Source: Candidatus Obscuribacterales bacterium (GTDB taxonomy: Bacteria; Cyanobacteriota; Vampirovibrionia; Obscuribacterales; Obscuribacteraceae). From it: a stretch of DNA of 64,000 nucleotides. Position 1 is the first letter of the stretch. Every line of letters begins with the position of its first letter. Below are positions 45,968-56,685 of the stretch, in pieces. The translations under genes and the position numbers were made by a program. The stretch is from contig CBDDIJ010000003.1 in assembly GCA_965228855.1 (NCBI GenBank), positions 2,112,001 through 2,176,000 of the forward strand, given 5' to 3'. The notes beneath the pieces were generated by a model. That model saw only the letters and a program-made list of their open reading frames with translations. It did no database searches and had not been told where the DNA came from.

Positions 45968-46128
45968 GACGCAAAAGGTTCAAAAGGTTTATCAGGTGGA
46001 TTTGAAAAAAAATACGCACTCTCCCCCACGCACACTCGCACGAGTGAACGGGGGAAGTAGTACTTCCTCGCCGCCCCTTTTCCTCAGGCTCAGCATCAGA
46101 ATCGGCGCGACTTGAAGATAGTATTCAA

Positions 46129-46157
46129 ACATTACCATACAAATGTATGCACGTCAA
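46129..46157 (-). promoter_or_regulatory. dnaE2 promoter with candidate SOS box CATAC-N4-GTATG
   Basis: Minus strand: TTGACG (46157-46152), 17 bp, TAATGT (46134-46129). Palindrome CATACaaatGTATG at 46136-46149. Confidence 0.75.
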
Positions 46158-46396
46158 TAATCACCAAATGCCCTGGATCACATTAAAGTCACGCAGCCAC
46201 ATTTATATGGAAGGCGATGGAGAGGCAAATTACTGAATTTCGTAATTTCCCCACTTGTCATAGGGTTGTTCCTGACGTAAAAATAAGGCACTTGCTCGCA
46301 ATATCAAAACCTCGACCCCCATGCAAAAGGCACCCTAGCCAAGTTGCACAAAAGCGCGCGCGTTCCCATCACGCCGTCGTCGTAGGAGTTACTATA

Positions 46397-47926
46397 ATGA
46401 CCGAAAAATTAGACGCCCAACGGGTTGCAGACGATGCCGCTACGGCATTGCAAACCACCGATGATGCCACTTCAAGGACGATGCTCCAGCACGTAAATGA
46501 AGACCTGCGCGCACTCTCGGAACCCGAAAGAAATTACGTCGCAAACGACCTGGCGCTGAAAGGTTTACTGCCGGATCTGGCTATTGAAACTGGTCTCGTA
46601 AGCGAAGACAAATTTGCAACCAAAGAAGACCTGGCACGAGTTGCAGCCGATGAAGGCAACTCGACAGTCAACGGCATGGCAGCAAAATTTCTGACCGACA
46701 ACTTCTCGGCCCTCGGCGGCGGTCCCCGCACCGACACGAATGCAGACTACGTCAAAGGCTTCGATATGCGCTACGATCTTGCGCTCGAAACCGCGAACGT
46801 AAAACGTGAATTTGGCGGATTGCTGGATCTGTACAAAAAGCAAAATCCGAACGACGCTGACATCCAGGCAAGAGACGGTCTGCAAGCAAATGATATTGAT
46901 GCACTTTTGAGTAAACCGGAGGCGCTCTCGCCAGCACAATCCGATGCGCTCAAAACAATGAAAAACAACTTCGACTATATGAAGACTCCCCGCGGTGTCT
47001 GGACACTGACCGACTGGACGACTCCAAGGGTCAACGAAGAAAGCATCGGTGATTTCGTTAATACGGCAGTGCCTCTAGGCATGGCTGAACAACTCAAAAT
47101 TGCCGAAGCCGAGAAATCAAAACAAGCAGGTTTAGAAGAAGGCGCTCGTCAAGCCCAACAAGAAAGACAAACGCCACCTGAAAGCAAGCCAGCAGAGGAA
47201 ACGCCTGCGACTCCTGACGCACCTCCTGCGACTCCTGACGCACCTCCTGCGACTCCTGACGCACCGCCTACGACTCCGGATGCACCTCCTGCGACTCCGG
47301 ATGCACCTCCTGCGACTCCGGACGCACCACCTGCGACTCCTGACGCACCACCTGCGACTCCAGACGCACCACCTGCGACTCCAGACGCACCACCTGCGAC
47401 TCCTGACGCACCTCCTGCAACTCCTGACGCACCTCCTGCGACTCCTGACGCACCACCTGCGACTCCGGACGCACCTCCCGCGTCACCGGACGCATCGCCC
47501 GTCTCACCAGACGCACCACCTGCAACACCAGATCAACCCGCACCGCCCGCAACACCAGACGCACCTCCGGCTCTACCGGAAGCACCCACGCCTGATGCGC
47601 CCCCCGCATCGCCGGAGGCACCGGGAGATCAAACCACACCACCGGAAAATATGGAACGAGATAAAGTTACCGACAAAGAATACACAGTCGTCGCTGGAGA
47701 CAACCTGTGGAAGATCGCCCGCGCGCACCTGACCGAATTGGAAGGCAAACGCCCCAATAATGCTGACGTCCTCAAACTCGTCAACGAAATCGTTGCGCGC
47801 AACAACATCAAAAATCCGAACTTGATCTATCCGGATCAAAAGTTCATCATCCCTGGTCCGGCGGCGGCTAATCCCGAAGCGTCACCAACACCGGTTCCAG
47901 CCCCCTCGGCACCGCCGGAGTCGTAA
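46397..47926 (+). CDS. Protein with unknown N-terminal domain, Pro/Ala/Asp/Thr repeat stalk and C-terminal LysM
   Basis: ATG 46397 follows AGGAG. LysM 'YTVVAGDNLWKIAR...IV.RNNIKNPNLIYPDQKFIIP'. Confidence 0.85.
   Translation: MTEKLDAQRVADDAATALQTTDDATSRTMLQHVNEDLRALSEPERNYVANDLALKGLLPDLAIETGLVSEDKFATKEDLARVAADEGNSTVNGMAAKFLTDNFSALGGGPRTDTNADYVKGFDMRYDLALETANVKREFGGLLDLYKKQNPNDADIQARDGLQANDIDALLSKPEALSPAQSDALKTMKNNFDYMKTPRGVWTLTDWTTPRVNEESIGDFVNTAVPLGMAEQLKIAEAEKSKQAGLEEGARQAQQERQTPPESKPAEETPATPDAPPATPDAPPATPDAPPTTPDAPPATPDAPPATPDAPPATPDAPPATPDAPPATPDAPPATPDAPPATPDAPPATPDAPPATPDAPPASPDASPVSPDAPPATPDQPAPPATPDAPPALPEAPTPDAPPASPEAPGDQTTPPENMERDKVTDKEYTVVAGDNLWKIARAHLTELEGKRPNNADVLKLVNEIVARNNIKNPNLIYPDQKFIIPGPAAANPEASPTPVPAPSAPPES
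47204..47539 (+). repeat. 16 x 21-bp coding tandem repeat (PATPDAP)
   Basis: 13 near-perfect units, then 3 degenerate units. Confidence 0.95.
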
Positions 47927-48509
47927 AAATTCCGGTTCCCACCGCATTAAATCTCTTTGGGAAGCAGCCGTTCAACACAGTTCCGACTGCACGTAAAACG
48001 CTCATTCGCGTAGCAACCCAAACCAAGCCGAAATCGCCTCGAAGAAATTCGGGGCGTTTTTGGCAAAACCTCGTTAACTCACAAGCAAGCAAAGTCTTTA
48101 GAAGCCCAGGAGCTTAATTTCGTCTCACCAAAGGCAGCTAGTCCTGGGATACAACCCCAGCAAGCAATCAACAGTCGAATAGCGCATTAATCACGGATGC
48201 GGGAAATACCGCCAAGAGACTTGCCAGCCATCCGAAAGTTTGGTGCCGGCAAGAGCGGTTAGTCCTGATGTGGACAGAAAAGCCCCAAGACTAGCCGAAT
48301 GTTAGACCTCATAACTGTTCCAACTTAAATGTATATCGAATTCCGCTACCACCGGAAGTGATTTCGCTTCGAATAACTTTGTTACGTTTTCCGAAGCCCA
48401 CCAATTGTAGTTTTCCGGGTTCGATCCATATAATCGTTCCCAACGTCTTCGGTATCCCAGTTTCTGGACGTAAATTTCAAACCAAATAAGATTGATGGTG
48501 GAGGACTCC

Positions 48510-49070
48510 ATGCAACTCAAACGTACTTCGACTCTTTTCTCAATTGCTCTGGCTCTCGTCGCAACAGCAATTTTTGATGCTCCGGCTTCGGCTCAGAAAG
48601 CGGCTTCCCCTTCCACAGTGAAGATCGGCTACTTCAACCTCACTATGGTTAAAGCCAAAACCCCGGCAGGCGATGCAGACGCATTGAAGAACCAAGCCGA
48701 AGGTCAACTTCGTCGCGATATCGAGACCGGTCAAAAGGCAATCGAAAAAGCACGCGCCGACAAAAAGACCGAAGCTGAAATCAAAGATATCGTCAAACAA
48801 GTTCAAACAGAACTGGCTGCCAAACAGCAAGCACTGTTCCAACTCGTTCAATCAGCAACTCTTCAAGACACACAAAGACTGGTTCAAGCAGTCAACGTCG
48901 TCGCCAAGAAAAAAGGTCTCGACCTGATCGTTGATGCCAACGCAGTTTACGCTGGTGGCAAAGAAGTTCTCGACAAAGGCATCGACGTCACCAACGACGT
49001 AATCGAAGCAGTCAACCCGATGGCAGCAATCGACCGCGCCGCAGAATCGAAGAAAGAAGCTTCCGAGTAG
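48510..49070 (+). CDS. skp: OmpH/Skp periplasmic chaperone family
   Basis: ATG follows GGAGGA. Signal peptide, 'KIGYFN', coiled coil, 'VAKKKGLDLIVD...V...DVT.DVI'. Confidence 0.85.
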   Translation: MQLKRTSTLFSIALALVATAIFDAPASAQKAASPSTVKIGYFNLTMVKAKTPAGDADALKNQAEGQLRRDIETGQKAIEKARADKKTEAEIKDIVKQVQTELAAKQQALFQLVQSATLQDTQRLVQAVNVVAKKKGLDLIVDANAVYAGGKEVLDKGIDVTNDVIEAVNPMAAIDRAAESKKEASE

Positions 49071-49100
49071 TCGTTCTTCAACTCAGCTGAATAGGTTATC

Positions 49101-49133
49101 GAAAGGGCCGGTTTTACCGGTCCTTTCATTTTT
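49101..49133 (+). terminator. Rho-independent terminator after skp
   Basis: GAAAGGGCCGG-tttta-CCGGTCCTTTC followed by ATTTTT. Confidence 0.8.
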
Positions 49134-49175
49134 GTCGTTGTGCTACCTTATATAGACAGAAACAGCGAGGCGCGA

Positions 49176-49661
49176 ATGACCAGTCCATACGAAGAAGATA
49201 CGATTCTCAAGGTCGGCGACCCTGCACCACAATTTTCGCTGGAATCATATCCCGCGGGTCAGGTGAGTCTGAAAGACTTTTTTGGGAAACAGAATGTGAT
49301 CCTCGCGTTCTACCCCAAAGACAATACGCCAGGATGTACAAAGGAAATGTGCACCTTCAGCGAGCGCCGTCAGGAATTCGCAAGTGCTAATACTGTTATT
49401 CTTGGTGTCTCCACGGACGATACCACTAGTCACAAAGACTTCGCTACTCAATACGGTTTGCTAAATCAATTGCTGTCCGACACCTCCCGCGAAACCGGCA
49501 TGGCTTATGGCGCGGTGCGAGGCGATCGCGTTATGGCAGATCGGGTTCTTTTCGTCATCGACAAGAAAGGTATGATTCGGCACGTTCATTCCGGACAGCC
49601 TGATTTCGATGAGCTGTTGGAAATTGTCACAGCATTGGAAAAACTGCAAGCGGATAGTTAG
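49176..49661 (+). CDS. bcp: Peroxiredoxin, BCP/PrxQ type
   Basis: 'GDPAPQFSL', 'FYPKDNTPGCTKEMC', 'GVSTD', 'RVLFVID'. Confidence 0.9.
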   Translation: MTSPYEEDTILKVGDPAPQFSLESYPAGQVSLKDFFGKQNVILAFYPKDNTPGCTKEMCTFSERRQEFASANTVILGVSTDDTTSHKDFATQYGLLNQLLSDTSRETGMAYGAVRGDRVMADRVLFVIDKKGMIRHVHSGQPDFDELLEIVTALEKLQADS

Positions 49662-49666
49662 CGTTC

Positions 49667-52246
49667 TTGAGTAACTCTGACCTCGAATTTGAGAACTATG
49701 AAATCGTCTCCAAGCTTGGAGAGGGTGGATTCAGCAACGTCTACCTGGCGATCCAAAAAACATTGGATCGAAGAGTTGTTCTGAAGGTTTTAAAAACAAA
49801 CTCAATAAACAACCGCGCGATCGTTAGATTCCAAAACGAAGCCAAAGCACTTAGCAAACTCAACCATCCCAATATCGCCTCGGTCTATGATTTTGGGCAG
49901 TCGTCAAAGGGAGATCTCTATCTCACCATCGAGTTTGTCGACGGCGACGATTTATCCACCCTGATTCAACAGCAAGAATTCATCGAAGTCGATGATGCGA
50001 TCGACATCATAATTCAGCTATGTAAAGCCCTCGATCATGCTCACCAACTCGGAATTATCCATCGTGACATCAAGCCGGCCAACGTAGTAATAACCCACTC
50101 GAGCACACCCGAAGGTGAGGCTGACATCAGCCGGCTGCACGCGAAACTGCTGGACTTCGGAATATCGAAATTGACCGAGGACGCCACCGAATTTAGTGCC
50201 GTTACGGTCGGCTCGAATCTGCTCGGTTCACCGCTGTTCATGAGCCCCGAGCAGTGTGAAGGAAAACCGATTTCGAAGTTCAGCGACCACTATTCACTTG
50301 GATGTGTTTTCTACAATATGCTCTGCGGGCAGCCTCCGTTTTTAGGCGAAACAGCGCTGTTGACCATGATGATGCATCAAAACGAACAAGCCGAACCATT
50401 ATCGAAAGTATCATCGCAGGATCTTCCCGACGGGATTGAAAAGATAGTCAACAAATTGATGTCTAAAAATCCAGGTGAGCGATACGCCTGCCTCTTGCAG
50501 GTCATCGAAGAACTTGAAAGTTTACGCACGCCGCCAGTCGAAAGTGAAGATACAGCCGACCCGGAGCCGCCTACTGCGCAGCGCAAATTCAGCAAGGCAA
50601 TGTTAGTCGGAGTAACATCAGTTCTTCTGTCTGTCAGTGCCGTTGCGCTCTCGTTGTTGTTCTTAAATATGAAAAATGACCTTTCATCTTCTGGCACCGA
50701 GTCTGGTGACAAAGCTACTGACTCGCTTTTTCCGCCACTTCCGACGACAGAGGAATCTTTCCAGAGAAAAGCTCAATCTCAGAAGGATTTCGAATATATC
50801 AATAAGCTTGCGGGCGACGAAGATATGCCTGAGATAGCTAGAAATCCCAAAATTCAGGTTGTGAACATTCCCAAAACGGGTATCACCGGCAATGCCCTGA
50901 GAGCTCTAAAATCTCTGAAATTAATGGTTCTAGATGTTTCTTACTGCAAATACCTGGGATCGTTAGACTTTTTAGAAGATCTTCCCTGGATTCAAATTCT
51001 TGATCTACATGATACCGAGATTGGTGACAAAGATTTGGCTTATGTGAGCAAACTCAAGAATCTCAAAGGGTTGAGAATTGATGGCTGTAAGCTCACTAAT
51101 AGCGGGTTGAGGCAACTTTTGAAGTCAGACTCGCTTGTTAAAGTTATGCTGCCTACCAACGCGGCGGTCGATCTACAAACTATCAAGAAGTTACATGAGG
51201 AACTTCCGCAATGCTCATTTCTTCCACGTTATAAGAAGAGCAAGATCGACTTGCGCACCGAGCAGCTCGGCATAAGCGATCCGTACAAATTAGCGATTGA
51301 GCTCAACAAAACTCCTCATTTGAGACAAACATCAACTTGCTACCTGAAAAATTTAGCCACCATATGCCAGATCCTCCTCATATCCGGCAAATCGGAAGAG
51401 GCAGGGAAGAACATCAAGCGACTCACGACGCTGAGCTTGCAGAGCGGAAATCAGAATGCAATTGCAACGGCGTATCACACTCGTGCCGAGTATGAAGCGA
51501 ATCATGGAAATTTTGCCGAGGCATACTATCTAAGCGAAAAATCACTTCCATTGTTTCGTGCCACAGTGCAGGTAGGTGATCCGGCGATTGTATCTGTCTA
51601 TCATGCATTCAACATCCTTTTATCGAGAATTGGCCACAAAGAAAGAGCAGTGACCGTCGCCGAGGAAGGACTTAAATTATTTGAGCAGTATCATGAACCC
51701 AATCTTGACCGCTCAGTAAAGCAGCATCCTTCGTCCGCGCCAATGGACGCGGTCGCAATGCGTGAGATGGTCGGTCTCTACTACTTATACGATAAACATA
51801 ACAGGGCAAAGGCAGCACCGCTGTTTGCAAAAAATATTGAGCTCCTCAACTGGCTGACCCCCAGTGCGAATGTGCTAAAGGCCAGAAATCTTATCGAATT
51901 AGCTCATAGCGAGACAAATAAAGACAAACGAATGCGACACTATTTAGAGGGAATGACTATCGTCAAAGATCTGAATTTCCCCGACGAAGATAATGCCATA
52001 ACGAGCTACTGTGATGCCGCTTTTAGCCTGGCTCAGCTCTATGACGAACAGTCAAATTCAGAGGCGGCAATCATCGAATTGCATCGAGCGCTCGCAGCGT
52101 TGCAACGCCAGAAAACTCTCGACACCTCTCGCGACGAGGTCTATCGCAAGGCACTCTTTCAATACCTCTCGAAGGCAGGAAAAACAGCAGAGGCTCACTC
52201 TGCCGCGGAAGAATTCGAGCATCGTTATCACAAGAAACCAATTTAG
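49667..52246 (+). CDS. Hanks-type Ser/Thr kinase - TM - LRR - TPR-like receptor
   Basis: 'LGEGGFSNVY', 'HRDIKPAN', 'DFG', 'GSPLFMSPE'. One TM, LRR 'L..LDVSYC...I.ILDLHDT..L..LRIDGC', helical repeats. Confidence 0.9.
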   Translation: MSNSDLEFENYEIVSKLGEGGFSNVYLAIQKTLDRRVVLKVLKTNSINNRAIVRFQNEAKALSKLNHPNIASVYDFGQSSKGDLYLTIEFVDGDDLSTLIQQQEFIEVDDAIDIIIQLCKALDHAHQLGIIHRDIKPANVVITHSSTPEGEADISRLHAKLLDFGISKLTEDATEFSAVTVGSNLLGSPLFMSPEQCEGKPISKFSDHYSLGCVFYNMLCGQPPFLGETALLTMMMHQNEQAEPLSKVSSQDLPDGIEKIVNKLMSKNPGERYACLLQVIEELESLRTPPVESEDTADPEPPTAQRKFSKAMLVGVTSVLLSVSAVALSLLFLNMKNDLSSSGTESGDKATDSLFPPLPTTEESFQRKAQSQKDFEYINKLAGDEDMPEIARNPKIQVVNIPKTGITGNALRALKSLKLMVLDVSYCKYLGSLDFLEDLPWIQILDLHDTEIGDKDLAYVSKLKNLKGLRIDGCKLTNSGLRQLLKSDSLVKVMLPTNAAVDLQTIKKLHEELPQCSFLPRYKKSKIDLRTEQLGISDPYKLAIELNKTPHLRQTSTCYLKNLATICQILLISGKSEEAGKNIKRLTTLSLQSGNQNAIATAYHTRAEYEANHGNFAEAYYLSEKSLPLFRATVQVGDPAIVSVYHAFNILLSRIGHKERAVTVAEEGLKLFEQYHEPNLDRSVKQHPSSAPMDAVAMREMVGLYYLYDKHNRAKAAPLFAKNIELLNWLTPSANVLKARNLIELAHSETNKDKRMRHYLEGMTIVKDLNFPDEDNAITSYCDAAFSLAQLYDEQSNSEAAIIELHRALAALQRQKTLDTSRDEVYRKALFQYLSKAGKTAEAHSAAEEFEHRYHKKPI

Positions 52247-52369
52247 CCGGTGGAGACGTTCTTGTCGCTATCAATACCGGAAGCTCGCTCGTCGCTTCCA
52301 TTACCAGTGGTATCGCCAACGGTGCATAAAGGCAACGCGGCATTCAACCGGCGCATGGCACGCTCGGAA

Positions 52370-53593
52370 CTACACCCAGCTCCACTGCATGCGTTGAGGA
52401 ACGCGCATGTTTAGCTCTTCAAGAGCCTCATCAAGACTGATGTCTTTCTTCACGCAAAGTCCCAGCAATTCCACCGCTTGTGTTCGAGGAAGATACCCGA
52501 AGCGCATCAGAGTTTGAACCCGAAGGGTTTTGTAGAGGACTTCCTCAGTGAGTAACTTAGAGTCTAGAAGCAGCTTGCCAATTTTGACGGCACTATCGGT
52601 ATTTGCCATCGCCTGTTCCAATTCCTCGCGTTTGCAAACCTCAGACTCTACGAGCAGGTCTCCCAGCCTCGTGTTTGAATCCGGCTTGTGCAGCAATTGA
52701 TATTCCGCGATTGTTGCGTACACATCGCTGTTCTCTTTGATTACTCGGCGAAGCGCTTCTGCCGCTTGGAAAGGCTTCAACGTACCCTTATTTATACTGC
52801 CCTGCAATGTCTCAGCCGATTCAAGCTGGTCTCGAGTAATAATGCCTCTTTCGACAAGAATCTGGCCAAAGGGCTTTTTCTTGAAAAGCTCTATTTCCAG
52901 ACACTCAGCCATCTCCTCCATCGTCACGAGGTTGGCCATCTCGAACAGCTCGCCAACGCGAGTAGTCTTAGCGTCAGGGTGAATGAAAAAGCCCAGCTCG
53001 AATAAAGCCTGCTCGAAGGAGACTTCGCGTTTTCTCGCATAACGCAGTCCCTGCGCGGCTTTATCCTTATCAAGACCGGTCTCTCTCATCATGTATACAG
53101 CACTCAGCGCCGTATACAGCTGTTTGGTAGTCAGTTTGTCATCCGTGAGCAGCCACTGGCCGATCATCATGCCGGCGTCTGTTGAGTGCTTAAGCGCATT
53201 GCCCAGGTCTTCCCGACTCAGCATCTTGGCGGACATCAGCAGCTGAGTAAGTTCGTTCGTAGCAGATACGACAATATGAGTCTGCTGGTGCAGCTTTTCA
53301 ATCGACTTGACTGCGTCTTCAAGAGAAACTTTGTTCTGTATCACCAGGCGAACAGCTCTGATGGCCATATCTAGCGTTATCTTTTTCTCTTCTACTTGCT
53401 TGAGCGCCTTTATGGGCGCTTCTAGTTTATCGGCTTCCGTAATTCCAGCGTCTACTAATGCTTCCTGGAGTTCGAGGTCTAGCTCGGCAGCGAGCTTGGT
53501 TCCGGCTTCAACTTGCTCGCGAGTTAAGACACCACTGCCCAGGAGTATTGGCACGAGCTGGGAGGACTGAGTATCTTTACTGGATGTGGTCAC
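52370..53593 (-). CDS. Stand-alone protein of tandem MshEN-like (GspE N-terminal) repeats
   Basis: Eight motifs such as 'RVGELFEMANLVT', 'FGQILVERGIIT', 'RLGDLLVESEVC', 'KIGKLLLDSKLLT'. GTG at 53593 assumed. Confidence 0.7.
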   Translation of the reverse strand: MTTSSKDTQSSQLVPILLGSGVLTREQVEAGTKLAAELDLELQEALVDAGITEADKLEAPIKALKQVEEKKITLDMAIRAVRLVIQNKVSLEDAVKSIEKLHQQTHIVVSATNELTQLLMSAKMLSREDLGNALKHSTDAGMMIGQWLLTDDKLTTKQLYTALSAVYMMRETGLDKDKAAQGLRYARKREVSFEQALFELGFFIHPDAKTTRVGELFEMANLVTMEEMAECLEIELFKKKPFGQILVERGIITRDQLESAETLQGSINKGTLKPFQAAEALRRVIKENSDVYATIAEYQLLHKPDSNTRLGDLLVESEVCKREELEQAMANTDSAVKIGKLLLDSKLLTEEVLYKTLRVQTLMRFGYLPRTQAVELLGLCVKKDISLDEALEELNMRVPQRMQWSWV

Positions 53594-53943
53594 CTTTGCA
53601 CCTTGATAAAAAAATGCGTTTTCTCGGTCCATCTCGCCATGGACACTATTCAAATGTTACCCGAAATTTGGGTTTCACATCCTTTGTTTGAACACGATTT
53701 TTATCCGGTATATGCAATCGGGCTCGGCTTGGACAGAATTCTGCAAGGGAGCCGAAGCAGCACCGCCGCACTTTATCGGTCCGGTCCTGGTCCCCAAGTC
53801 GGTCCGGACCTGGCGCCCGAGTCGATCGAATTCGGGTCTGCCAGTCGATCCAACGTTCGTCAGTGGTAGGGTCTTGGCAGTTGTTATCGCCGCGTCAGTA
53901 TTAATGTCCGTGTCGGTCTTTGCCGTTTCGCGTCGTGCTCATC

Positions 53944-55578
53944 TCAGTCATATTCGCCTTCGATAAACCAGGTTTGACACTCGTGGTCGTAAACAAGCAG
54001 CATCATCAGCATCAGATCACTGGCTGCCGGCTGAACCAGAGCCGTGTAATACGACTTGCGCACAGGCTCTTCCCACCACAACCCAGAAAGGCATTCCGGG
54101 TTGGTGATGCTTTGAATTCTGTACAGCCGCCCCTCATAGGTAAAGGCCTGCGGCTTTGTCTTGTGAACCTCCATAAAAACGGCGATCGGACTCGGGTGCC
54201 TTTTCAGAACCAATCCGGAAACTAGCCCGGCGGTGCCTGTTTTCTCTTTGACGTAGTCAACGGCAATCGCGAGCCGCTTCCTTTCGGAAGAGACCACCGA
54301 CAACTCCCTTTTGCCGGAATTCCTTTTGCCTTTTGACGACCGCGTTTGCGTCTCCGTCTGCTTGCGCGACGAGATGGCTGGTTGCCATTCTCCGGCTCGG
54401 TCGGGTGTGTATTGATCAACGGGTACGGGCTTGACGAGAACATTGTCACCTCCATATCGAGTGTTTAACTTTTGAACAAGCAGCAAAAATGATTCTGAGA
54501 AAACGCCGTTCTCTTCGCTTGGAATAATGCCGCTGGCATCGTTAGACAGCACCGGCATTTGCTTGAATACTTCAATCGAAGTCCTGGAGACAATCAGGCG
54601 GAGACTGGTAAACTCCTTTTCAAGCCGTTTGTTCTCAATTGATAATCGCAATACTTCCAGTAAAAATTTGCTCTGGCTCGAAGGACGAATTAATCGAACG
54701 GTTCGCTCATCAAACAAATCCTCATCCGAATAAAAACAGACTACAATTTCCTCCGCACATAACCCCTTTTCTATCAATAATTGGGTGAGCCGATCGAGCA
54801 TTGACTTAATCACAAAAAGCGTGTCGTTGAGAGCTTCTATGGGACCACCCATATCAACGTAACACTGAAACTCGGTTTCAATTTTCGGCAAAGAGGGCTG
54901 ACGTGCGTCAATACCAGAAGCCAGGCTGTAGGCAAGCAATCCTTCTGATTCAAATCGCGATGCCACCTCATCAACGGGCAATGCGGTCAACTGACCCATT
55001 CGTTCGATTCCTAGCCCATAGAAGATCTCTCTGAGCTCACTTTTGATTGGCAGAAAATCAATTGAAAGCGTTGACAGAAACTGCCGATCCTTGCCATGCT
55101 CCACTATGTGCCAGCGACATTTTTTATTTTGCGCCGCCACAATTGCAGCAAAAGCACTGTCAGCCATTCCGATACTACATTCGGTGTATCCTTTCCGACT
55201 TACAAATTTCAAAACGTCTCTTGCGAAATAATTTTCACCTCCTAGAAGTGAGAGTCCATCGGCATCTATCAGGAAAGTTCCGACCTGACATGCCGACACT
55301 CGCGGAGAACAAGCCACCAATTCAGCAAGCATTTCCTTCTGCGCTTTTATATAAATGTGTTCGTCGTAATCCCTCCAAATTAGTTCAGAACAAACAGCTC
55401 TTGCTTCAGAGAGTCTCATGCCGACTCTGACGTATTTCCGCTCAGCCTCAGCCGAACAAAGTAAAACCCTTGATCGTCCGCCGATTAAAACAAATGGCTT
55501 TCCCTTAAGCTCAGGCTCATGCTTTTGCTGTACGACGATCTGGAATCTGGGGATGCGTAAACAAGCGATTCGGGACAT
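53944..55578 (-). CDS. imuB: ImuB (catalytically inactive Y-family polymerase homolog)
   Basis: 'RIACL..PRF', 'G...GM.LSEARA', 'SPRV'. Clamp-motif-like 'QMPVL'. C-terminal 'PE.L...WW...R.YY...W...G.YD'. Confidence 0.88.
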   Translation of the reverse strand: MSRIACLRIPRFQIVVQQKHEPELKGKPFVLIGGRSRVLLCSAEAERKYVRVGMRLSEARAVCSELIWRDYDEHIYIKAQKEMLAELVACSPRVSACQVGTFLIDADGLSLLGGENYFARDVLKFVSRKGYTECSIGMADSAFAAIVAAQNKKCRWHIVEHGKDRQFLSTLSIDFLPIKSELREIFYGLGIERMGQLTALPVDEVASRFESEGLLAYSLASGIDARQPSLPKIETEFQCYVDMGGPIEALNDTLFVIKSMLDRLTQLLIEKGLCAEEIVVCFYSDEDLFDERTVRLIRPSSQSKFLLEVLRLSIENKRLEKEFTSLRLIVSRTSIEVFKQMPVLSNDASGIIPSEENGVFSESFLLLVQKLNTRYGGDNVLVKPVPVDQYTPDRAGEWQPAISSRKQTETQTRSSKGKRNSGKRELSVVSSERKRLAIAVDYVKEKTGTAGLVSGLVLKRHPSPIAVFMEVHKTKPQAFTYEGRLYRIQSITNPECLSGLWWEEPVRKSYYTALVQPAASDLMLMMLLVYDHECQTWFIEGEYD

Positions 55579-56380
55579 GAGTATTCAACCTGGTTTCCAT
55601 ATTCTGTGTCATACCATCACGAGAAATAAATCCTTGAATGGCAGGTGTAATCATGGCAATGCCATTCATACCGTTTTCATAACTAATCGGAGCCGTCCAT
55701 TTGAATTGCATACTGGTATGAGTACCCCAGCCACTACCTGTGGTGCCATTCAAATTGGCTCTAAAATGCTGATCCCTCAAAATAATCAATGCAGACTTTG
55801 AACGTTCCAGAGCTCTTTTCAAGCGCGCAAAGGTTCTATCCGAAAGAGATATCGATGCGCCCATATCAAATACAATGGCATCAAAAACGGCGCTTCGAAT
55901 CAATTGTTCTACCACCCAACAGGCTTCCAGACGGATGTCCTTTTTTCGGGCAACGTTGTTTTCAGCTTCATCCGAATTGTCCTGCTGAGCGAGATTTTCA
56001 CTGACTCTCACCGCAAAGAATTCACCGTTAGTGTGGCTCTTTCGTTGCATCATATTCAGTGGCACAGGTCCACACAAACCTTCGCGCACGAAAGCCCAAT
56101 CCCCAGCAACCAAGCGGCTGAAAGTGTCTACATATGCTACATTCAACCCGCTTGCGCACCAGTAAGTTACTGCCCCTCTAAGCAGCGTAGACTTGCCGGA
56201 AGAAGAAATTCCCGTCCATTCACTGATTTGTCGTCTGGCAAACCCGGAAGCGATACCAGCATCGATATCACGAATCCCGGTACGCAGGATTTTGTCACCA
56301 TCTGCCCCGGTGAGCCATTTCCCGGGAAACAGCTGCTCGAGTTGTTGTTTTAAGACGGCTACATTTGCATTCATGCGCAT
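55517..56380 (-). CDS. imuA: ImuA (RecA-like protein)
   Basis: 'LRTGI.DID', 'ISEWTG.SSSGKST', 'VAYVD', 'EQLIRS..FDAIVFD', 'RLKRA.E'. Overlaps the imuB start. Confidence 0.8.
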   Translation of the reverse strand: MRMNANVAVLKQQLEQLFPGKWLTGADGDKILRTGIRDIDAGIASGFARRQISEWTGISSSGKSTLLRGAVTYWCASGLNVAYVDTFSRLVAGDWAFVREGLCGPVPLNMMQRKSHTNGEFFAVRVSENLAQQDNSDEAENNVARKKDIRLEACWVVEQLIRSAVFDAIVFDMGASISLSDRTFARLKRALERSKSALIILRDQHFRANLNGTTGSGWGTHTSMQFKWTAPISYENGMNGIAMITPAIQGFISRDGMTQNMETRLNTHVPNRLFTHPQIPDRRTAKA

Positions 56381-56656
56381 CACCACTTCTGCCTGACAAG
56401 AAGTCAGCCAGTCCAAAGCCACCACCAACTAAGCAAGCACACAGACTTACAACGACGTTTTGGCGCCGCCTCCACGGCGTTAGAACCTCGAAGCAATTCC
56501 AACGACTTCTTCCGTCGCCTACAAGCAATTAGTAGACAGCAAACCGCGCAAGAAACGCGAGACTTTCACCCCGCCTTCCACACACAGCCTCCGCCTGAGC
56601 AAATCTCTCAGCCGCAGCAGCTGCTACTAACCCCTACTTTTACAACCAGTAAAACC

Positions 56657-56685
56657 ATTCTACCCATACATCCGTATGGCGTCAA
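56657..56685 (-). promoter_or_regulatory. imuA-imuB promoter with candidate SOS box CATAC-N4-GTATG
   Basis: Minus strand: TTGACG (56685-56680), 17 bp, TAGAAT (56662-56657). CATACatccGTATG at 56665-56678 (extends to CCATAC-N4-GTATGG). Confidence 0.78.

Follow-up and report, generated by a model that had tools for sequence, protein, structure and literature searches.

The question raised by this locus is whether the palindrome CATAC-N4-GTATG, which lies in the predicted promoters of both dnaE2 and imuAB in a 64,000-nucleotide stretch of a Candidatus Obscuribacterales genome (the window), is the LexA operator that defines the SOS regulon of this lineage, as an initial annotation of the window had proposed. 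The features on which that proposal was built were recovered: both promoters have TTGACG, a 17-bp spacing, and the perfect palindrome, the boxes differ by 1 bp in register, and they are 10,529 bp apart, compared to the 10.5 kb originally given (Table 1). Within the window alone, the pair is not significant and is weak evidence, though both sites are perfect: two matches with at most one mismatch were present versus 0.85 expected, and 21 of 100 shuffles reached two. The strong evidence is the comparison across genomes, not the window.

Table 1. Positions of the putative operators, predicted promoters, and genes in the window
Feature	Position	Strand	Basis or detail
Putative operator CATAC-N4-GTATG, dnaE2 promoter, perfect, between -35 and -10	46136..46149		Sequence; minus strand CATACatttGTATG at 46149-46136
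Predicted sigma70-type promoter of dnaE2	46129..46157	-	TTGACG 46157-46152, 17 bp, TAATGT 46134-46129
Putative operator CATAC-N4-GTATG, imuAB promoter, perfect	56665..56678		Sequence; minus strand CATACggatGTATG at 56678-56665
Predicted promoter of imuAB	56657..56685	-	TTGACG 56685-56680, 17 bp, TAGAAT 56662-56657
dnaE2/imuC, error-prone polymerase, 1093 aa	42686..45967	-	Above NCBIfam PRK05672 cut-off (1204 bits; cut-off 939; 'error-prone DNA polymerase')
imuA-like gene, RecA-fold, 303-aa open frame	55517..56428	-	Fold and position
imuB-like Y-family/IMS polymerase gene, overlaps imuA	53944..55578	-	Family match

The imuA-like product is a distant RecA-fold protein (profile match to PDB RecA, E of about 1e-8). 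Its name rests on fold and position because the match to the ImuA model (E = 0.007) falls below the cut-off, and its true start is probably about 16 codons inside the open frame. Approximately 8 kb of unrelated genes (window 45968-53943), coding for a LysM protein, OmpH, a peroxiredoxin, a Ser/Thr kinase, and an MshEN/DUF4388 protein, part imuAB from dnaE2, while imuAB and dnaE2 are contiguous in 11 relatives. The gene for the LysM protein (46217-47926, plus strand) is divergent from dnaE2; its middle is of low complexity and repetitive, with tandem repeats in overlapping frames around 47280-47730. There is a second, foreign-looking imuA-imuB-dnaE2 cassette in this genome (C4:87900-93400), with a DnaE2 that is 44% identical and encoded in two frames. 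Its imuA is preceded by the alphaproteobacterial box GAAC-N7-GAAC, and the contig, C4, may represent a plasmid or contamination of the bin.

The 8.2-Mb genome contains nine perfect CATAC-N4-GTATG sites versus about two expected; five of the nine precede repair genes, and the other four fall within reading frames. When the spacer was varied, N4 was the peak, with 12 other spacer lengths giving one to seven perfect sites each. For further searches, a matrix was trained on 65 sites from the imuA, splB-like, and ssb promoters of relatives, leaving out this genome (G000) and lexA. The arms of the box hold 1.3 to 2.0 bits per position and the centre positions 0.2 to 1.3 bits; position 2 is A in all 65 training sites, and the 19 distinct imuA sites hold 18 different central 4-mers. 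Thus, near-invariant arms flank a free centre in a dyad with a rigid spacer over predicted promoter elements. The box lies between -35 and -10 at imuA and dnaE2, on the -35 at ssb, and on or after the -10 at lexA and dinG, and this variation in register from gene to gene is as expected for an operator.

Could the motif instead be a promoter element, such as a sigma-factor spacer or an extended -10? At dnaE2, and at lexA in the related family f4, the right arm ends in TG-n before the -10, at the extended -10 position, which is that of the TRTG '-16' element. The layout TTGAC-box-TAnnnT, with the -10 in register, also recurs in diverse phages, in 34 of the 120 viral matches listed. However, the box occupies at least four registers relative to -35 and -10, including downstream of the -10 and in tandem, its dyad symmetry is complete around a free centre, and it is restricted to repair genes, so that a promoter element is an exceedingly improbable explanation. 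No clear SOS gene was found at the viral matches with an in-register -10 among the 120 listed. These matches, which show no evident connection to the lineage, suggest that phages have unrelated operators built on this palindrome. Other proteins may therefore use this sequence too, and the box is not confined to this system.

Applied to this genome, the matrix gave ten sites at 17 bits or more, upstream of the splB-like gene, imuA, Ku, dnaE2, ssb (two sites), a PD-(D/E)XK-like gene, lexA, a dinG-like gene, and a 255-aa orphan, with lexA the only regulator gene among them. Orthologous promoters, with this genome included, were then scored for a site with at most one mismatch within 450 bp. The box was present at imuA in 29/30 orthologues (26 perfect), at ssb in 29/30 (25 perfect), at the SplB-like radical SAM gene in 24/27 (17 perfect), at the DinG/Rad3-like helicase gene in 18/20 (6 of 26 loci having been dropped as internal fragments), and at the PD-(D/E)XK-like gene in 29/30, usually as a tandem pair 15 bp apart; these counts are among kin and hence not independent. 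The corresponding background, from crude gene calls of our own for this genome, was 52 of 6109 called genes (0.85%). Conservation at dnaE2 depended on gene order. Among 30 loci, searched over 1500 bp, 4 lacked usable upstream DNA, and 14 of the 15 with their own dnaE2 promoter had the box, compared to none of the 11 in which dnaE2 follows a 478-499-aa frame, taken as imuB by its size and position. The box thus accompanies dnaE2 in split cassettes such as that of the window. Conservation in orthologous promoters, a point on which the initial annotation had staked its proposal, was borne out at all six of these genes.

The PD-(D/E)XK-like gene (C5:1386634-1387428, plus strand; L369:1369-2163) is present in 40 of the 41 genomes of the order searched. 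It codes for a 264-aa protein with conserved cysteines, whose best Pfam match is only E = 0.03 and which has PDDEXK clusters among its Atlas neighbours at 0.95. The protein is a candidate for an uncharacterised SOS function. The possibility that the tandem site serves xseA was considered and rejected, as the site precedes the divergent PD-(D/E)XK-like gene by about 40 to 65 bp and moves together with that gene.

Ku (perfect site 158 bp upstream, C2:2361157), dprA (one-mismatch site just past its -10, C5:224895), and the 255-aa orphan are unconfirmed candidates from this single genome. The orphan's promoter matches that of imuA in its -35/box/-10 layout and opposes a divergent defence-type gene (TPR-GreAB-PIN/Cap4-nuclease; C3:1651906-1657038). 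The site between the two was absent from 3/3 homologues, and it was discarded as a conserved target. The core regulon predicted from these comparisons is likely to consist of lexA, imuA-imuB(-dnaE2), ssb, the SplB-like and DinG/Rad3-like genes, and the PD-(D/E)XK-like gene with its tandem sites.

The single-copy lexA gene is outside the window, on the minus strand at C5:842697-843383. Its product is a canonical LexA, with a winged helix and an S24 peptidase domain, that passes TIGR00498 (159 bits; cut-off 111) and PF01726, and alignment to the LexA proteins of Escherichia coli and Thermotoga maritima shows Ala115-Gly116, Ser148, and Lys186 to be intact. Its closest homologues (58 to 90% identity) are mostly from Ca. 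Obscuribacterales or Melainabacteria, in keeping with a position of the genome in Vampirovibrionia. The lexA promoter carries TATAC-ttac-GTATG over its -10. Of 26 lexA loci of the same order, 25 have a box with at most one mismatch within 250 bp; such a box also lies upstream of lexA in 38 of 41 close homologues versus 1 of 39 distant LexAs, the first two sets overlapping and sharing genomes. The three misses among the close homologues have a two-mismatch-type form instead, and the lexA promoters of the distant LexAs have their own known boxes. Part of the conservation at lexA reflects promoter constraint, because its left arm also serves as the -10 (TATACT). The initial annotation, which had no lexA in view, had suggested a search upstream of that gene, and the box stands there both here and in almost every close homologue. 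These comparisons make it highly probable that CATAC-N4-GTATG is a new Obscuribacterales LexA operator, with a compact SOS regulon centred on mutagenesis under its control.

The recA gene does not fit a conventional regulon. No site with at most one mismatch was found in 30/30 recA orthologues of the order, and the looser variant CWTAY-N4-RTAWG was also absent (0/31), which removed recA as a target in Obscuribacterales. In this genome, uvrA (two genes), uvrB, recN, dinB, and ruvA scored below 0 bits on the matrix, and the second ssb and dnaE1 were without a site. The enrichment at SOS genes that had been anticipated was therefore seen at lexA and ssb, but not at recA in the order or at uvrA/B and recN in this genome. 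The proposal that the box is a LexA operator defining a lineage SOS regulon is supported by these sequence data, with the amendment that the regulon would be a reduced one rather than of the full E. coli type, because recA and, in this genome, uvrA/B, recN, dinB, and ruvA are without a site.

Thus, recA appears to be outside direct LexA control in this order. SOS networks without recA regulation are cited in PMC13148647, for example in Geobacter and Myxococcus; with these documented exceptions, a recA site is a typical but not a strictly defining member of an SOS regulon. Among 27 aligned recA promoters, TT(T/C)AAT, usually 26 to 28 bp before GCTATAAT, was found in 19, and an ATATAC-like word was found upstream in 18 and downstream in 20, these patterns being loose, picked by eye, and without a shuffle control. 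The first word is about 50 to 75 bp upstream and the second about 50 bp downstream. The recA promoter of this genome has a CATAC/TATAC repeat with an 11-bp period. It is possible that this architecture is the site of another regulator.

In the mechanism we propose, a LexA dimer, with one winged helix on each CATAC arm, would occlude the sigma70-type promoters. Damage-derived single-stranded DNA would form RecA filaments that trigger Ala-Gly self-cleavage of LexA, and cleavage would lift repression from lexA, ssb, and the genes for the ImuABC mutasome, the radical SAM protein, the helicase, and the nuclease-like protein, with RecA supplied constitutively or via another regulator. LexA as the binder, the block of RNA polymerase, and induction by damage are inferred from sequence; relief of LexA repression by RecA-stimulated cleavage is itself established (PMC3091678 and PMC8565304). 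LexA might instead bind the box in a regulon that is not switched by damage but is constitutive or answers another signal, as proposed for Synechocystis. The absence of recA from the regulon, and hence of positive feedback, would suit such a system, and the LexA of Synechocystis PCC 6803 is reported to be out of SOS control (PMC3091678). However, the cleavage site and the catalytic Ser and Lys are intact, the targets are translesion and repair genes, and SOS networks in which recA is not regulated are documented (PMC13148647). It therefore seems very unlikely that the regulon lacks a damage switch.

Comparison across the class provided a further view of which protein reads the box. The LexAs of families f4 and f10 (helix TKGTLQYH) group with Obscuribacterales LexAs with moderate support (90/78). 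The variant CWTAY-N4-RTAWG was defined after inspection of the f4/f10 lexA promoters, where it is exact in 8/14 and within one mismatch in 14/14, and of five recA promoters. It was then present in seven of nine further f4/f10 recA promoters (11/14 overall; shuffles gave a mean of 0.24 and a maximum of 3), several of the genomes being close kin that share the site. One f4 genome with the site has no lexA match (assembly in 260 contigs). The variant also precedes radA in 5/5 sister-clade genomes, one of them seen earlier and one with the site at a distance of 738 bp upstream. In families of the class with another LexA or with none found, 49/49 recA promoters lacked the variant, one of the 49 holding a one-mismatch CATAC site. 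A darT-darG toxin-antitoxin pair (L341:1500-3016, G101) is preceded by CTTAC-N4-GTATG, a form of the f4 box.

Other LexA types were accompanied by other boxes. For three Sericytochromatia LexAs with the helix STSTVHYH, the box at lexA is GAAC-N4-GTTC. The LexA of family f8 is short and divergent, with the helix FKYHNSVQHY; the three lexA promoters read there (L031, L032, and L312) bear TGTAC-N4-GTACA, a box that was found at recA in 0/10. Across the class, the type of box thus goes with the type of LexA. The LexA DNA-binding domain was found in few genomes of families f5 (1/10), f6 (4/14, mostly weak), and f7 (0/8), which suggests loss of lexA in several small-genome lineages. Family f6, mostly without lexA, has perfect sites in 14/14 genomes, with one to five matches each. 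These were considered as a counter-example regulon and rejected: 14 were read, 9 lie inside reading frames, and the genes adjoining the 5 intergenic sites do not appear repair-like, as judged from their N termini. Lineages are poorly told apart by the number of perfect sites in the whole genome.

In the recognition helix of this LexA, Asn-Arg-Met-Thr-Ile-His-Gln stands opposite E. coli Ser39-Pro-Asn41-Ala42-Ala-Glu44-Glu45, for which DNA-contacting positions are listed in PMC3091678. The helix starts with N-R-M, compared to S-T-S in the GAAC-box Sericytochromatia. Three unlike helices (NRMTVHQH, TKGTLQYH, and APGTITDH) accompany near-identical boxes, which would not be expected were specificity set by helix III alone. 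The helix APGTITDH is that of Cyanobacteria bacterium UBA8530, in which a perfect CATAC box at lexA is the only perfect site in the genome; a single origin of the box that includes UBA8530 had a p-AU of 0.1. One account is that these helices, from three LexA lineages of non-photosynthetic Cyanobacteriota, all read CWTAY-N4-RTAWG, either as a conserved intermediate between GAAC and GTAC boxes that outlasted turnover of the helix or by repeated convergence, and that recA of Obscuribacterales moved to a second damage regulator, whose recA architecture would be the ATATAC elements with TTTAAT about 26 bp before GCTATAAT. We regard this account as doubtful, though worth keeping in view.

The mismatch of helices and box could also mean that another dimeric repressor, of the TetR, XRE, or phage type, binds the box and that lexA is merely one of its targets. 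The lack of a box at recA, the similar layouts in phage promoters (one of them before a small Cro/Ner-looking protein), and the control of Bacteroidetes SOS networks by non-LexA repressors (PMC8565304) are consistent with such a protein. However, the top-scoring sites include no regulator besides lexA, and a search of the genome for a second S24 peptidase found none besides LexA. The variant shifts with the LexA clade and is missing from recA promoters where there is another LexA or none, and the distant LexAs have their own known boxes at lexA. Thus, it is very improbable that a repressor other than LexA is responsible, and LexA remains the preferred reader of the box.

If LexA is the reader, Obscuribacterales and its sister clade, beside the oxygenic cyanobacteria, would have their first SOS operator and regulon, and the box would bridge the GAAC type of Gram-positive bacteria and the GTAC type of cyanobacteria. 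It would also provide natural pairs of helix and box for the study of changes in LexA specificity, for which synthetic genes suffice though the organisms are uncultured, and would mark the gene for the uncharacterised PD-(D/E)XK-like protein as a candidate in the damage response. Mechanistically, this would be an ordinary LexA, and new LexA motifs are a recurrent type of finding: 17 had been reported by 2021 (PMC8565304). A literature search on LexA or SOS in Melainabacteria, Vampirovibrionia, Obscuribacter, or non-photosynthetic cyanobacteria found no description of the box. Searches for the motif strings gave only chance, primer-type matches among those listed, and an earlier mention may exist.

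Among the closest known systems is that of the cyanobacteria, whose box is AGTAC-N4-GTACT, or RGTACNNNDGTWCB, in Nostoc PCC 7120 (PMC3091678). Both boxes are 14-bp palindromes with a 4-bp spacer, an inner TAC-N4-GTA core, and a preference for A or G beside the left arm, and they come from sister lineages. However, the outer two bases are CA..TG here and AG..CT there, giving four mismatches, and the cyanobacterial box scores -6 bits on the Obscuribacterales matrix. GTAC-N4-GTAC was found in only 0 to 4 of the 21 to 30 whole loci in each gene set; lacking GTAC half-sites, the box is not cyanobacterial. Single sites with a CATAC left arm are shown for Microcystis, never as the full palindrome in the rows shown (PMC3091678). 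The cyanobacterial regulon also includes recA and uvrA, whereas both are outside the Obscuribacterales one.

The Gram-positive box of Bacillus subtilis, CGAAC-N4-GTTCG (quoted in PMC3091678), shares the geometry, the outer C..G, and the inner AC..GT, and the helix keeps T-V/I-H-x-H. It differs in having GA rather than AT at arm positions 2 and 3, which makes four mismatches, and in its GAAC half-sites, which the present box does not have. Both regulons have lexA, error-prone polymerases, and a radical SAM protein as a core (PMC7739468), but recA is not included in that of Obscuribacterales. TAC-containing half-sites also occur in the LexA motif of Balneolaeota, TTACACATATTTTWTACATA, which is a direct repeat (PMC7739468), and in that of Bdellovibrio, TTAC-N3-GTAA, which has a 3-bp spacer and other outer bases (PMC8565304); both are lineage-specific motifs found by the same comparative route. 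Geobacter and Myxococcus, as cited in PMC13148647, resemble Obscuribacterales in having an autoregulated lexA and a recA without a box, with different motifs. In the present case, recA of the sister clade is still under a variant of the box.
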